In this document: one piece after another, positions 4,735 to 43,595 of the stretch
Layout: each line of letters starts with the position of its first letter
How positions within the stretch are numbered: the first letter of the stretch is position 1
DNA from: Promethearchaeota archaeon
Lineage (GTDB): Archaea > Asgardarchaeota > Lokiarchaeia > Sigyniarchaeales > SOKP01
Assembly (NCBI GenBank): GCA_016839765.1
Contig: JAEOTP010000016.1
Coordinates: 1-64,000, forward strand
Direction of reading: 5' to 3'
Length of the DNA stretch: 64,000 nt
Notes under the pieces: model-generated
The model's input: the letters and a program-made list of their open reading frames with translations, nothing else
The model's database searches: none
What the model was told of the DNA's origin: nothing
Program-made: the position numbers and the translations under genes

Positions 4735-4868
4735 GGCTCGGTTCGTATAGTGGTTAGTATTGGGGACGATTCTTGAAAAATATTCAAGAATCCCCACTGT
4801 GAATCCTTAGTGATTGGGGGAATTTCTCTCCTTTCGGGGAAACGGGGGTTCGATTCCCCCACCGAGCC
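4735..4868 (+). tRNA. tRNA-His(GUG) with encoded G-1 and two BHB introns (4768-4797 at 32/33; 4811-4841 in the variable loop, 45/46)
   Basis: Acceptor G-1+GCTCGGT/ACCGAGC+C73; D arm GTAT..GTAT; T arm GGGGG-TTCGATT-CCCCC; after splicing, anticodon arm GGGGA-CTGTGAA-TCCTT and variable loop AGAC. Confidence 0.9.
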
Positions 4869-4987
4869 CTTCTTAATCTATAATTTCTATTTTTTGTTTT
4901 AAATTTAAGTATAATTACATAAAATGGAAGATTAAAATCTGTAGAATTATTTTCTTATATAACTGATACTAATTAATATTTGTAATT

Positions 4988-16143: not shown

Positions 16144-17440
16144 TTAAATCTTCGAGGCGATAAAATCTATGATATCAACAACTTTAATTTTTTCTTTAAC
16201 CATAGTATCCATTTCTTCATAAGCGTTGTTTAAGTTATTTATGCAAAATGGACAGCTAGTTGTTAAAATTTGAGCACTACTGTCAACTGCTTCTCTAATA
16301 CGTTCTTTAGAGATTTTAACCGCTAACTCTGGAAATTGGCTTTTTACCCCACCACCCGCGCCACAACACCAAGCATTATTTCTATTTCTCTTCATTTCTA
16401 TTAATTCAATTCCTGGAATATTAGTAATGACTTCACGAGGTATATCATAAAGATTCATGTGGCGACCTAAATGGCAAGGGTCGTGGTAAGTTACCTTTAC
16501 TTTTTCTCCTTCTTCCTTTTTAAAAGGAATTTGATTATTATTAAGCAATTCAATTATTATTTCTGTTATATGCTTTACTTCAAATGGTAATTTTTCACCT
16601 AATAATTCAGGATAATCTTTTTTCCACGTTCGATAACATCCTGCACAAGCGGTAAAGAGAGTCTTAGCACCCCTTTCCTTGAATTCTTCAATATTATGTT
16701 TAATCGTTTCAGTTAATGATTTTTCATCACCAATACGTATGGCAATTGAGCCACAACACCATTCATCTTTGGTCATTGCTATTTCTTTTCCTGCCGCTTT
16801 TAAAATTTTCATCATATTTTTTAATGTTTCTACCTGTCTTAAAGGTATACTACATCCCCCAAAAAACATTAGTTCTCCCTTTTCCTTAATTTCGGGAAAT
16901 TCTTTTATCCAATCGAATTTTTCATCTATATCCTCCCCATATGGATTTCTCATCTTATCATCGTTCATATATTCGACTAAATCACTATGTCTTTCAAGAG
17001 GAGCAAAACCAGCTTCAACCAAATCTTTTCTTAATGCATCCCAAACTTTAACATGATCAATCCAATTACACGTAGGGAGGGTAATATATTCATTTTGAGA
17101 CATATGACATACTTCAGTACAATTTCCACATACCGAGCATTGATATACCCATTCTGCAAGCTCTCTACTCAATGGGATTTGTCCTTCTAATATACTCTTG
17201 AGGACATTCATCCTCCCTCTTGAAAAATATAATTCAAATCCCTCATCTTCCATTGCCTCTTTAACGGGACATGTCAGATATCTCCCAACAACAGGTCGAA
17301 TGGCGTAACCACAATCTCCACAACCCAGGCAGGGTTTACGATCGATATCATAAACCTTTCTGCGATCATGGATAATTTCCAAAACCTATACAAGAGAATA
17401 TGGCTTTCCATTCCTTTTTTAGATGTTTTAATTCACTCAT
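16144..17440 (-). CDS. HdrD/GlpC-like Fe-S oxidoreductase (ferredoxin-like + two CCG domains); two exons: 17440-17388 and 17326-16144, 411 aa spliced
   Basis: Spliced N-terminus MSELKHLKKEWKAIFSCMGCGDCGYA...CP aligns with the paralog at 42171 (LKELEKEIYKCIHCKACRFA); WCCG, ACAGC, YHDPCHLGR, WCCGAGGG, TSCPFC. Confidence 0.88.
17327..17357 (-). other. mRNA BHB intron B (31 nt)
   Basis: AGGUUUAUGAUAUCGAUCGUAAACCCUGCCU; 9-bp outer helix UCCAUGAUC/GGUUGUGGA, central helix GCAG/CUGC, bulges AA^A and CU^G, 10-bp inner hairpin with AUCG loop. Confidence 0.85.
17358..17387 (-). other. mRNA BHB intron A (30 nt)
   Basis: AGGUUUUGGAAAUUAUCCAUGAUCGCAGAA; central helix UUGU/GCAG, bulges AU^A and AA^G, inner hairpin GGUU.UGGA/UCCA.GAUC. 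Confidence 0.8.
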
Positions 17441-17450
17441 ATTTTTCACA

Positions 17451-18314
17451 TTAAAATATATAAACTAGTTTTTCACTAATTTTCCATAATTTCGTTTGTA
17501 GAGATTCATCATAAGTCAATTTGTGTGATTTTACAGGTTTACAGTTCTTAAAATATTTTCCCGTAATTCCTTCCACTTCGGGCGATGATGCGAGATATAC
17601 GGAAGTTCTTGCCGCTTCTTCTGGGCTTTTTGTCAATGGTGATATTAAAGAGAGAAAAATTTTGGAACGTTTTTTAGTTGGAGCTGTCATTTTTGTTCTT
17701 GCATGACCTGGATGAAGTGCATTTACAGTTACACCAGTTCCATTTAATCTACGTGCCAATTCATATGTGAATAGTACTAACGCAAATTTAGCATTTGCAT
17801 ATGCTTTTTGAGAAGAATATTTTTCCTCAGACATTAAATCATCAAAATTTATTTTAAAATAGAGATGAATATTTGATGAAACATTTATAATTCGGGAAGG
17901 AGCGCTGTTTTTAATGACATCAAGTAAAGAATTTGTTAATAAGAAATGTGCCAAATAATCGACTGCAAATGTGCTCTCATATCCATTTTCAGTTTCTATT
18001 CTTTTTCTATTAAAGATACCGGCATTATTTATTAAAACATGTAAATATTTGTAATTCTGTTTGAATTCTTTAGCCACATTTTCAACTGATTTTAAAGAAG
18101 CTAGATCTGCGATTAAAAGATCGATTTTTTCATTACCTGATTTATCTTTGATCTCATTTTGTGCTCTTTCTGCTTTTTCTCTATTTCGACATATCATTAT
18201 GATATGATATCCCTTTATTGCTAGTTGCATGGCGGTTTCTATCCCAATACCAGCATTGGCTCCCGTAATCACACAAAATCTTTTGTTAGACTTATAATTT
18301 TTGTTAATCATCAT
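17451..18314 (-). CDS. Short-chain dehydrogenase/reductase (RDH/WWOX-like)
   Basis: TGANAGIG, NNAG, YANAK, HPG. Confidence 0.92.
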   Translation of the reverse strand: MMINKNYKSNKRFCVITGANAGIGIETAMQLAIKGYHIIMICRNREKAERAQNEIKDKSGNEKIDLLIADLASLKSVENVAKEFKQNYKYLHVLINNAGIFNRKRIETENGYESTFAVDYLAHFLLTNSLLDVIKNSAPSRIINVSSNIHLYFKINFDDLMSEEKYSSQKAYANAKFALVLFTYELARRLNGTGVTVNALHPGHARTKMTAPTKKRSKIFLSLISPLTKSPEEAARTSVYLASSPEVEGITGKYFKNCKPVKSHKLTYDESLQTKLWKISEKLVYIF

Positions 18315-18332: not shown

Positions 18333-19844
18333 TTACTCCCAAAAATTAAATTTACCTCTACTCAATATCATATTTGGGTCTAAATTTTTTTTAATAGATG
18401 TCATTAAGTTATAAAATTCTTCTGAATAAGCTCCAATATCTACCATAAAACGAGATACATAATCACCCATCATATACCATTGCACTCCATGTCTAATTAC
18501 TCTTTCTAAGAGAGATTTCCATAGCTTTATGTTAGTTTCTTTGATTAAATCATGGATTTCACCATCATAATACCTCCAAAAGCTTACAAAACCAGCTGTT
18601 ATCTCAACATTATTACCATCTACTAATGGTACAGGTCCACTACCTGAAATCGGCCGAACATTGGTAATATCGAAAATTTTTCGCATATCTGATTCGTGCT
18701 CAATATCCCATTGATCAATGTCTTGTAAAATTTTAGGAAATGCAGAAATTGGACAAAAACACTCTGCTGATAATGGTTGCATTGATGGGTACATCCCCCA
18801 TAAATTATGATAAAATTGCCAATGCCCTTGTTCTGCATAATGCCATTTAGCAATATTACCGTCCTTAATCTCAGGGCCTAAAAATTCAGATTTCTTGCCT
18901 AATATTATCTCATCCAAATTTTTAACTCGTTCTTCTAATTCTATCTTACTATTTGCTTCAATAGTATAAAAGAACATACCAAGTTTACGTTTTATACCTT
19001 CCCATAATGGAAACATACCTCGTTCGGATCCAATAGCAACAACTACATCCGGAATAAACATAGCATCATAAACATCTATGCCTTTTTGCCTAATTTCGGT
19101 CATGATTTGAGCTGCTGTCTCAGCAGATTTTCGGGGCATCAAAAATGTTTTATAGTCTGCAAACTTTGGTTTAGGAAATATTTGTAGAGATACTTTTGTT
19201 TTAACCCCAAATATTCCATTGTCGCCACAAAATAATCCAGCTAAGTCAGGTCCATTTCCAAATCTATTAAACGGATATTTCGAAAATTTATTTGCTTGAG
19301 AACCAGTCTCTATAATTTCACCAGTAGGTAAGACTACTTCTAACGAAACTAATTGATTTGTACAAGCTCCATATTTTGCACAACCACCACCTCCCACAGA
19401 ATGATGGGAAATTCCTCCTCCAACAGAAGCAGACATTCCTGAACCAGGCCCCATACATCCTGTATAAAGCCCATAATGACAAAGATATTCATTTAATTTA
19501 CCCCATGAGATTCCGGCTTCTATTGTAACGATTAGATTATCCTCATCCAAATTAATAATATTATTCATTCTTTTCATGTCTAGAACAATACCACCATCTC
19601 CAATGGGTTTACTGCCGCCAAACTCACAGATTCCCCCACCGCGAGGTATGACCGGCATATTATTTTCATTCGCAACTTTAAGAATTTCTGAAATTTCTTT
19701 AGCATCTTTAGGTCTAATTACTATATCAGGCACACCTTGTAATACAAGATCTACATTTCTAGAGTAAGCGTGTCGTACATAAATGCTGTTAGAGAGAAAT
19801 TTTTTGGATACAATTTTTTCTAATTTTTGGTAAATTTCAGTCAT
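18333..19844 (-). CDS. FAD-binding oxidoreductase (GlcD/VAO family)
   Basis: PDIVIRP, PRGGG, ASVGG, LEVVLPTG, G..GIFGV.T, LDPNMIL. Confidence 0.9.
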   Translation of the reverse strand: MTEIYQKLEKIVSKKFLSNSIYVRHAYSRNVDLVLQGVPDIVIRPKDAKEISEILKVANENNMPVIPRGGGICEFGGSKPIGDGGIVLDMKRMNNIINLDEDNLIVTIEAGISWGKLNEYLCHYGLYTGCMGPGSGMSASVGGGISHHSVGGGGCAKYGACTNQLVSLEVVLPTGEIIETGSQANKFSKYPFNRFGNGPDLAGLFCGDNGIFGVKTKVSLQIFPKPKFADYKTFLMPRKSAETAAQIMTEIRQKGIDVYDAMFIPDVVVAIGSERGMFPLWEGIKRKLGMFFYTIEANSKIELEERVKNLDEIILGKKSEFLGPEIKDGNIAKWHYAEQGHWQFYHNLWGMYPSMQPLSAECFCPISAFPKILQDIDQWDIEHESDMRKIFDITNVRPISGSGPVPLVDGNNVEITAGFVSFWRYYDGEIHDLIKETNIKLWKSLLERVIRHGVQWYMMGDYVSRFMVDIGAYSEEFYNLMTSIKKNLDPNMILSRGKFNFWE

Positions 19845-19977: not shown

Positions 19978-20571
19978 TTGAAAAAGAGAATAAAGTATAC
20001 AATCATCTTAATAATTTTTTTGCTTCTAACAATTCCTATTTATTTTAATGTGTTTACAGATTTTTTTTTTATTAACGAATTTAATATAATTATATCTGTA
20101 ATTCTTGTAATAGGTTTTTTGACACTCTTTTTAATCGGAAAAGTCATTGAAGTTTATGGTTATAATGCAGAAATTATTAAAGTAATGGAAAAGCATGATA
20201 TCATAAATTCATTTGTTGAAGGTAATAATAAAATTATCAGATGGTTAGGATTTCTTGTAATTATAATAATTGAAGAATTAGTTTTTAGATATTATTTAGT
20301 TGGACTATTAAACATTCAATCATATTTAGGAGAAATGCTAATAATCCTAATCTCAAGTATAATCTTTTCAATCTTTCATATCCATACTTGGTTTTCTTAT
20401 AAAAATGTAAGAATTTTGACTATCTTTCTTATCTATTCATTTTTCTTAGGATTATTTAATGGATATCTTCTTCTAACTTTAGGAATAATCCCTTGTATTC
20501 TAGTTCATTATAGTCTAGCTTCTATTCTATATTATGGTATTTATAAACGTTATTTTAAAGTTAAAACATAA
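19978..20571 (+). CDS. CPBP/Abi-family intramembrane metalloprotease
   Basis: EELVFR, FSIFH, ILVH; several TM helices. Confidence 0.85.
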   Translation: MKKRIKYTIILIIFLLLTIPIYFNVFTDFFFINEFNIIISVILVIGFLTLFLIGKVIEVYGYNAEIIKVMEKHDIINSFVEGNNKIIRWLGFLVIIIIEELVFRYYLVGLLNIQSYLGEMLIILISSIIFSIFHIHTWFSYKNVRILTIFLIYSFFLGLFNGYLLLTLGIIPCILVHYSLASILYYGIYKRYFKVKT

Positions 20572-42170: not shown

Positions 42171-43595
42171 ATGGCTAAAACTGGAATGGAAAGATTAAAA
42201 GAATTAGAGAAGGAAATATATAAGTGTATTCACTGTAAAGCATGTAGATTTGCTTATTCGGGAGAGCCCAGTAGAGAAGGGATAGGGGAATATACAGGTA
42301 AACAGGGTACAGTTCTTTATGAAGGAATGGTTGACGCATGTCCAGCTGGAATAGAATACGGTTGGGAAGCGTTTTGGAACGCCGGTAAAATTTGGATTGC
42401 TCGTTCAATTTTAAGCGGAGATTTAGATTTTTCTGATGAAGTAAGGGATGTTATAATGCCTTGTATTACTTGTGGACAATGCAGTGCTCAATGTGATAAT
42501 AAAATTCCAACTGTTGATATTATCGAATCATTACGAGCAGCATGTAATGAAGCGGGTATTCCAATGATAGAAAAGCATGAATTAGTGGATAGGCTTGTAA
42601 AGGAACTCAATAATCCTTACGGTGGAAAAGCTGCAGAACGCTTTAAATGGGCAAAAGATGCCGGATTAGAGAAATTTGTTGATAATAAAGAAGCAAAAAT
42701 TGGCTACTATGTAGGTTGTACTGCATCATACCGTCAAGTGGAAGTCGCAATAGCAACTGCGAAACTTTTTGAAATGTTGGGCATCAACTTTACTTTAGTT
42801 GGTGATGAGGTATGTTGTGGAAGTCCTTTCTTTAGAATAGGAGCTGTTGACACTGCACAAGAACTAATGAACAAAAATCTCGAGGCTTTTAAAGGTTTAG
42901 AAATGGTTTACTTCAGTTGTGCTGGATGTTATAGGACAATCACTTTAGATTATCCAAAATGGATGCCTGAGGGTTCCAAACTACCTTTCAAAACACAACA
43001 CGCATTTGAATTAGTCACTCGATTAATCCAACAAGAAAAAATCAAATTCAAGCCAAATAAAGAGTTAAAAGGAAAGATAGTTACCTATCACGACCCGTGC
43101 CATACTGGTCGTCATTTCGGAGTTGATTTTGAGCAAGAACTTATCAAACAAAGCAAGAATTTAATGTTCGATATGAGAAAAATCAAAGAGAAAATTGATA
43201 AATGGTTTGAAATTCCAAGAATTATTCTTAGAAAGCTTGAAGAGGATGTTGGAATCGAATTTAGAGAAATGTATCGTATAAAACTGAATAGTATGTGCTG
43301 TGGGGCAGGTGGTGGTGTCCGTGCTGGATATCCTGATTTCTCAATACGCACTGCTAGTTTACGATGTGATGAAGCAAATGCAGTAGAAGCAGATATTTTG
43401 ACAACCGAATGTCCTTTTTGCTGGAGGAATCTAACGGATGCTAATGAACTATACAATCATGGCATGAAAGTTATGGGTGTTTTACAAATGATTACTGAAT
43501 ATAATTTATTAGAAATCTTAGATAATCCGACTGAAAAAGATTTCTTGACCTCCTCTATAAGGGAACTTGAAGCAGATTCCGAAAAGAAGAAATAA
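42171..43595 (+). CDS. HdrD/GlpC-like Fe-S oxidoreductase (CCG domains), intronless paralog of 16144..17440
   Basis: CIHCKAC...CP, CITCGQCSAQC, VCCG, SCAGC, YHDPCH, CCGAGGG, ECPFC; GGAGGT RBS. Confidence 0.92.
   Translation: MAKTGMERLKELEKEIYKCIHCKACRFAYSGEPSREGIGEYTGKQGTVLYEGMVDACPAGIEYGWEAFWNAGKIWIARSILSGDLDFSDEVRDVIMPCITCGQCSAQCDNKIPTVDIIESLRAACNEAGIPMIEKHELVDRLVKELNNPYGGKAAERFKWAKDAGLEKFVDNKEAKIGYYVGCTASYRQVEVAIATAKLFEMLGINFTLVGDEVCCGSPFFRIGAVDTAQELMNKNLEAFKGLEMVYFSCAGCYRTITLDYPKWMPEGSKLPFKTQHAFELVTRLIQQEKIKFKPNKELKGKIVTYHDPCHTGRHFGVDFEQELIKQSKNLMFDMRKIKEKIDKWFEIPRIILRKLEEDVGIEFREMYRIKLNSMCCGAGGGVRAGYPDFSIRTASLRCDEANAVEADILTTECPFCWRNLTDANELYNHGMKVMGVLQMITEYNLLEILDNPTEKDFLTSSIRELEADSEKKK

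Follow-up and report, generated by a model that had tools for sequence, protein, structure and literature searches.

The gene for a GlcF/HdrD-like Fe-S protein in a Promethearchaeia (Loki-type Asgard) archaeon is interrupted by 61 nucleotides that, judged from a comparison of alleles, are very probably two tRNA-type (BHB) introns, spliced from a protein-coding mRNA. The position of the insert, the restoration of the reading frame upon its removal, the covariation within its helices, the selection acting on both exons, and the presence of the splicing enzymes in the genome can all be observed directly.

The interrupted gene and its alleles

The gene lies on the reverse strand of the 64,000-nt stretch of DNA that was analysed (the window). 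Its ATG, at 17440, opens a frame that encodes MSELKHLKKEWKAIFSC and then I-G-F-G-N-Y-P before a stop, seven codons on. Deletion of the 61 nt from 17387 to 17327 yields one ORF of 411 amino acids that reads ...FSCM|GCGDC across the junction, and the C-M-G-C-G-D-C so produced is the first Fe-S cluster motif (CxxCxxC) of the protein. A preliminary description, made from the sequence of the window, had noticed both the early stop and the resumption of a CCG oxidoreductase 61 nt later, and it was right in this and in all of its coordinates. Exon 1 (17388..17440, 53 nt) extends from the ATG to the first Cys of CxxCxxC and on through the first two bases of the Met codon. Exon 2 (16144..17326) supplies the remainder of the protein to the stop codon, with a Fer4_8 dicluster and two CCG domains (by Pfam and NCBIfam, scoring below equivalog cut-offs). 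Deleting intron A alone (17358..17387) or intron B alone (17327..17357) leaves stops in frame. The paralog at 42171, put forward earlier as collinear with the restored protein, is so only roughly: exact collinearity is lost to a 3-residue offset ahead of the first Cys. True orthologues, rather than this paralog, are the exact control for the junction.

Genomes of the genus and metagenomes provide 113 orthologous loci, which reduce to 97 distinct junctions. There is no insert in 53 of the 97, and these read C-M-G/N/S-C-G-D/E-C after the same N-terminus. The other 44 carry inserts of 29-63 nt, all placed after the same AU: 35 alleles with single inserts (29-34 nt) and nine with double inserts (56-63 nt). 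Every one of the 44 breaks the frame, 31 by frameshift and 13 by an in-frame stop. Excision after the second bulge base recreates the intronless sequence, and the 53 intronless junctions match at that base, as the preliminary description had expected of relatives that lack the 61 nt. A misassembly, also considered at the outset, is not the explanation, because the same A+B allele recurs in a further genome (L004; protein identity 84%) and the insert is spanned, at about 90-94% identity, by independently assembled contigs from three other studies. Variants of A+B are found as well on metagenome contigs L075 and L131. One congener contig (L007; G018:C18:1-3) begins right at the intron site, two bases ahead of exon 2, as would be expected of a population in which some members have the insert and others do not.

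How well do the inserts fit the BHB shape? Amongst 34 distinct single inserts, the 4-bp BHB helix is paired in 98.5% of cells and is complete in 32. Shuffling the partners reached that level in none of 10,000 trials (shuffle mean 89%); such tests are inflated by related sequences, and the five pair types and the dependence on register are hard to obtain by descent alone. At slid registers, pairing of the central helix is 17-66%. The outermost pair of the helix takes the forms U-A, U-G, G-U, C-G, and G-C, the exon side being a synonymous position. The inner helix is 85-97% paired in single inserts, and the hairpin z is below -2 in 29 of the 34. The exons are also involved: two exon-exon pairs beyond the bulge, flanking the motif, are formed at frequencies of 91% and 100% in alleles with a single intron, compared with 32% and 43% in intronless alleles. 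The Ser codon takes the form TCN throughout the intron alleles (47/47), whereas 29/53 intronless alleles use AGY (p ~0.004 by independent pairs).

One may ask whether the inserts merely inactivate the gene, as pseudogene alleles or the footprints of elements, with the BHB shape incidental. With its many CCG paralogues (25 matches), the genome might tolerate the loss of one. But the insert is present in nearly half of the alleles, and both exons are intact save in one truncated allele. Exon 2 shows a dN/dS of 0.055-0.13 in pairs that include an intron allele, equal to that of intronless pairs (0.06-0.10), and exon 2 of the split gene compared with its relatives gives 0.07-0.13. Covariation specific to one register would not persist in a dead gene. 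Selection and covariation together already largely refute inactivation, which I regard as scarcely credible. The truncated allele is L148, intron-bearing and frameshifted near residue 240 by a short deletion; it is the sole damaged allele seen.

A different objection is that nothing is spliced here: translation would begin at a TTG within the insert (17380..17382, reverse strand), the product would keep CxxCxxC in the form ...PCLGCGDC, and exon 1 would be a leftover. The frame is indeed open from 17382 for 412 amino acids, with a Cys two residues ahead of GCGDC, and Fer4_8 scores 24 bits with the TTG product against 20.8 without. Gene callers choose this ORF and public records annotate it; for one relative, the protein listed publicly at NCBI is this 412-aa product of the TTG, just as the preliminary description had warned. 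However, only three of the 44 intron alleles offer both the start and the Cys, while the homologous double alleles have a stop or Arg, so that the N-terminus is not a conserved one. The Cys codon has an explanation of its own: it is there because intron B must complement GCAG, the complement of the original Cys-codon strand. Nor does exon 1 behave as a leftover. In 40 distinct intron-bearing alleles it contains no stops and is under purifying selection, with pN 0.147 against pS 0.67 (pN/pS ~0.22), and in two intronless orthologues the Fer4_8 match falls below cut-off when exon 1 is removed (from 31.2 to 26.7 bits and from 29.0 to 24.3). Finally, a TTG start in this allele leaves the 35 single-insert alleles unexplained. 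Translation from the insert in place of splicing is thus highly improbable, and the pattern across alleles marks the TTG start as a by-product. It may serve in this allele as a leaky by-pass, where unspliced RNA could yield a CxxCxxC protein.

Two probable introns and the predicted order of their removal

Intron B, 31 nt in length and situated at the 3' splice junction of intron A, is a canonical BHB. Its central helix is GCAG/CUGC (4/4), its bulges AAA and CUG, its inner helix 10/10, and its outer helix 9/9, the 9 bp pairing intron A with exon 2. It ranks first, at -23.6 kcal/mol, amongst 1,939 strict BHB candidates (<=45 nt) in the 3.3-Mb genome, and the candidate that ranks second is a tRNA intron. 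Intron A (30 nt) is a relaxed BHB and contains both the in-frame TGA and the decoy TTG. Its central helix, UUGU/GCAG, in which the UUGU strand comes from exon 1, pairs 4/4 with two G-U pairs included; its inner hairpin helix is good; its outer helix is just 2 bp; and its bulges, AUA and AAG, arise once intron B is out. On its own it is thermodynamically weak (-3.8 kcal/mol), and what establishes this predicted intron is comparison with relatives, not energy. The earlier parsing of the 61 nt into two abutting BHB units, each cut after the second bulge base, therefore stands, the helices being as described and the relatives in agreement. No further copies of intron A or intron B were found in the genome.

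The A units of all nine double alleles belong to one family, and in L124 a homologue of intron A is found by itself, as the only intron. The B units are mostly related, with compensatory stems: the central helix is GCGG/CCGC in L059, and inner stems are changed in L075, L110, L114, and L131. I propose that intron B is a later gain on one family of intron A.

GCAG plays two parts, as the 3' helix strand of intron A and the 5' helix strand of intron B. Because the introns share this strand, intron B would have to be cut first. Folding gives the same order. In the precursor, the central helix of intron A has a pair probability of 0.0, which rises to 0.16-0.23 without intron B, and if intron A were cut first, intron B would have two mismatches. 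By computation, the two introns are not independent and make up an ordered substrate, B before A. In the precursor, GCAG at the end of intron A would pair with the CUGC of intron B, so that only B forms a BHB. Intron B would be excised, ligation would release GCAG for pairing with the UUGU of exon 1, and intron A would then be cut as a relaxed BHB, giving C-M-G-C-G-D-C. Nested introns of archaeal pre-tRNAs (Sugahara 2007; Tocchini-Valentini 2009; PMC3978253) likewise include a last BHB that forms after another's removal. The present case differs in that the substrate is mRNA, the introns abut at a single junction, and they have one 4-nt helix strand in common.

I infer that the cleavage is carried out by the cell. 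The host's two-subunit EndA would do the cutting and RtcB would rejoin the ends. The genome has two EndA genes (PF01974 over cut-off; contigs C72 and C82), one of which has the Tyr/His/Lys catalytic residues, and one RtcB gene (PF01139 over cut-off). A permissive EndA must be assumed, because intron A is weak and some alleles are mismatched in the central helix. The (alpha-beta)2 type of EndA, common in Asgards, is reported to cleave non-canonical motifs (PMC5829648). The suggestion of the preliminary description, that an Asgard archaeon splices the mRNA of a metabolic gene by means of its tRNA machinery, gains support from orthologues, from the lack of conservation of the TTG N-terminus, from independent assemblies, and from the presence of EndA and RtcB.

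Could the inserts come out, or be passed over, in some other way? The core of a self-splicing group I or group II ribozyme, at least some hundred bases, is absent from the inserts, which are simple hairpins of 29-34 nt. Perhaps ribosomes hop over the hairpins in translation, or an enzyme other than EndA excises them. Free-standing nuclease cassettes of phage can be tied to recoding, as is known for T4 gene 60, and the BHB of intron A is weak. Yet the inserts begin and end precisely where the geometry of EndA requires, behind the second base of each of the 3-nt bulges that flank the 4-bp helix, and pairing is lost at slid registers. Moreover, the point of insertion lies within a codon (AU|G), and matched take-off and landing codons are absent. 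I give bypass or a non-EndA enzyme very little chance.

Probable spread of the intron with a putative nuclease companion

The intron is present patchily: there are 22 changes on a tree of 91 rows, at least 15 of them forced by well-supported branches, and near-identical sister alleles differ in having it. The genes upstream differ too. The usual direct upstream partner of the split gene encodes a GlcD-like FAD oxidase (18333..19844, reverse strand, in the window), and it is directly adjacent in 49/52 intronless alleles but in only 12/45 intron alleles. Directly upstream of 13/45 intron alleles and 0/52 intronless alleles is a gene for a double-HNH nuclease, or its remnant (Fisher p 1.6e-5); the association is borderline in a phylogenetically independent test (8 pairs, ~5 for, 0 against, p ~0.06). 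The nuclease is free-standing, 600-790 amino acids long with two HNH_3 domains (an example is encoded at L154, 2333-4132), and the double-HNH protein found no match in PDB or NCBIfam. The locus in the window departs from this arrangement. Here, the variable slot between the FAD oxidase gene and the split gene is occupied by one for a short-chain dehydrogenase (SDR; 17451..18314, reverse strand). In another genome (L160; G033:C135, ~20,330-20,460) a 43-codon HNH remnant immediately precedes the intron-bearing gene, and ABC-transporter-like genes have entered on the upstream side.

Exon 1 tracks the status of the intron and not the rest of the gene, in a gradient that fades into exon 2. When an intron allele is compared with an intronless one, exon 1 differs by 21-24% at any distal divergence (3.5-14.5%); when two intron alleles are compared, it differs by only 9-12%. 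The exon 1 nearest to that of an intron allele belongs to another intron allele in 95% of cases (base rate 46%). This polar pattern is expected if the nuclease gene, exon 1, and the intron were copied in together.

I think it probable that the intron moves from lineage to lineage by collaborative homing. The double-HNH nuclease, its gene inserted immediately upstream, would cut alleles that lack the intron close to their conserved Cys codons. The repair would copy in the nuclease gene, exon 1, and the intron, which would protect the new allele. The nuclease gene would later decay or be replaced, in this genome by the SDR gene. The precedent is in phage, where a free-standing endonuclease is paired with a group I intron that has no ORF (PMC10448857). 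There too, the nuclease gene lies outside the interrupted gene and next to it, nuclease and intron are acquired together, and the intervening exon is co-converted in a polar way. The differences are that here the site is on a cellular archaeal chromosome, the intron is a 30-nt BHB spliced by protein and not a ribozyme, and the double-HNH protein, without solved relative, is a putative nuclease. Archaeal rRNA offers BHB introns mobilised by homing endonucleases (PMC2738675), but these are long introns with the nuclease encoded within, as opposed to a minimal intron with a free-standing nuclease.

The intron might instead be old and have come down by vertical inheritance, lost many times over; the HNH gene would then be a passenger with no relation to it, lodged at an insertion hot-spot that separates two genes. 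The tree does not distinguish gain from loss, the slot also accepts SDR, membrane, hydrolase, and LRR genes, and the HNH family is present at other loci. It would then be odd, however, that the nuclease is found in none of the 52 intronless alleles and that exon 1 tracks intron status with a gradient into exon 2. The double alleles, moreover, are one family and yet are scattered on the tree (9 changes, where shuffling gives a mean of 9.7). Vertical descent seems to me a possible account of the origin, though an unlikely one.

If homing is the route, what of the nuclease elsewhere? Some observations count against homing. By eye, HNH relatives at ten other loci had no neighbouring intron. This genome's own HNH copy, on another contig, adjoins genes in which no intron was seen, and there is no HNH motif within 3.5 kb of the four other intron sites checked in the genome. 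That copy, a full-length double-HNH homologue (L165; G000 C33:38895-41078, reverse strand), has 46% identity to the cassette nuclease. It is oriented tail-to-tail to what is probably a radical SAM gene, whose apparent start lacks an in-frame ATG; C56 of G000 holds one more HNH match, a partial one. At L172 (G014:C194:14421-18440) an HNH member follows an AAA ATPase gene and is accompanied by a duplicate of the final 45 codons of the ATPase gene. The gene that follows appears split around another ORF, and the arrangement resembles a cassette in which the end of a gene has been replaced.

Other candidate introns, known systems, and implications

At least five other genes of the genome hold BHB-bounded inserts of 30-37 nt within conserved motifs, and in each of the five examined, removal restores the motif of the family. 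These encode mevalonate kinase (G000 C96:37300-37330, forward strand), DnaG (G000 C17:32113-32077, reverse), phosphofructokinase (G000 C22:40418-40389, reverse, a relaxed BHB), eS31 (G000 C51:14793-14823, forward, 31 nt), and EF-1alpha (G000 C57:103567-103599, forward). A congener has eS31 without the insert; for the other four, motif restoration is the one line of evidence that suggests a candidate intron. The motif test did not convincingly recover an intron in the Rag-GTPase gene, and the genome's cbf5 is intact at its catalytic motif.

Coding introns are sparse. A census at the protein level against 400 kb of a congener found none in ~200 orthologue pairs. At the DNA level, 744 kb of alignment gave one clear coding intron, that of eS31, in a comparison that can miss introns common to both genomes or near gene starts. 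From one in 744 kb it follows that there are probably a handful to low tens of introns per genome. I give no ab initio count, because the scans failed to beat their controls. A strict scan for single BHB introns that restore the frame found no excess over an antisense control, and real sites whose outer helices are weak escaped it; a relaxed BHB scan was swamped, equal to a control of mirror geometry.

Certain tRNA genes should be mentioned as well. In the window, positions 4735-4870 (forward strand) contain a multi-intron tRNA gene, probably tRNA-His(GUG), with a strong BHB inside (rank 3 of the candidates). ARAGORN misses it by default and mis-calls it Glu with the intron option. In a congener (G018 C17 ~332,660-332,740, the L048 region), the tRNA-Cys gene upstream of cysteinyl-tRNA synthetase has a 30-nt insert in the T-loop, absent from this genome's copy and loosely similar to the mRNA intron family. 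I considered an origin of the family from a tRNA intron and did not accept it: the congener's tRNA-Cys insert has a z of 4.2 against shuffles, but unrelated hairpins reach z 2-3.

By every testable feature the inserts belong to the class of BHB introns. The confirmed case in a coding sequence is cbf5 (Watanabe 2002; Yokobori 2009, PMC2738675), which with one Haloferax 5' UTR makes up the confirmed endonuclease splicing of archaeal mRNA in the literature searched. The crenarchaeal cbf5 introns (PMC2738675) are similarly short (16-44 nt there, 29-34 here), free of ORFs, often relaxed in their BHB, inserted within a codon of a conserved motif, associated with hetero-oligomeric EndA, and patchy amongst relatives. 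Here, by contrast, the host gene is a metabolic Fe-S gene of an Asgard, with two stacked introns in obligate order, a very patchy distribution, co-conversion of an exon, a nuclease partner, and several genes per genome. Splicing of cbf5 was demonstrated by experiment, whereas the present case is known from sequence. The Haloferax intron, in the 5' UTR of HVO_1309 (PMC7714728), likewise has EndA acting on mRNA, but it is untranslated, while here the reading frame requires removal. BHB introns in Asgard mRNA are not reported in the literature searched, a search whose coverage left most subscription journals outside. A preprint on Asgard tRNA introns (10.64898/2026.10.13.758758) found no general arrival route for them and is silent on mRNA; in its available part, homing nucleases of the free-standing kind are not put to a test as such. 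The novelty lies in the host, in a gene for an ordinary enzyme, in introns that are stacked and ordered within an mRNA, and in an HNH partner that stands free.

On balance I favour the view that Loki-type Asgards splice the mRNAs of enzymes with their tRNA machinery, ordered stacks included, and that the introns are the immunity part of HNH cassettes. Public annotations are wrong at such intron sites. The locus amounts to a natural experiment with about 100 alleles, in which splice sites are fixed to the base, structure is under selection, and a stacked pair occurs. The HNH partner makes the gain of tiny BHB introns without ORFs, a long-open question, testable by nuclease assay; if the idea is true, it would provide such introns with a concrete route of arrival, left open by the 2026 Asgard tRNA-intron census. 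And splicing of mRNA by EndA and RtcB would appear to be used, for metabolic and core genes alike, in the lineage closest to eukaryotes.
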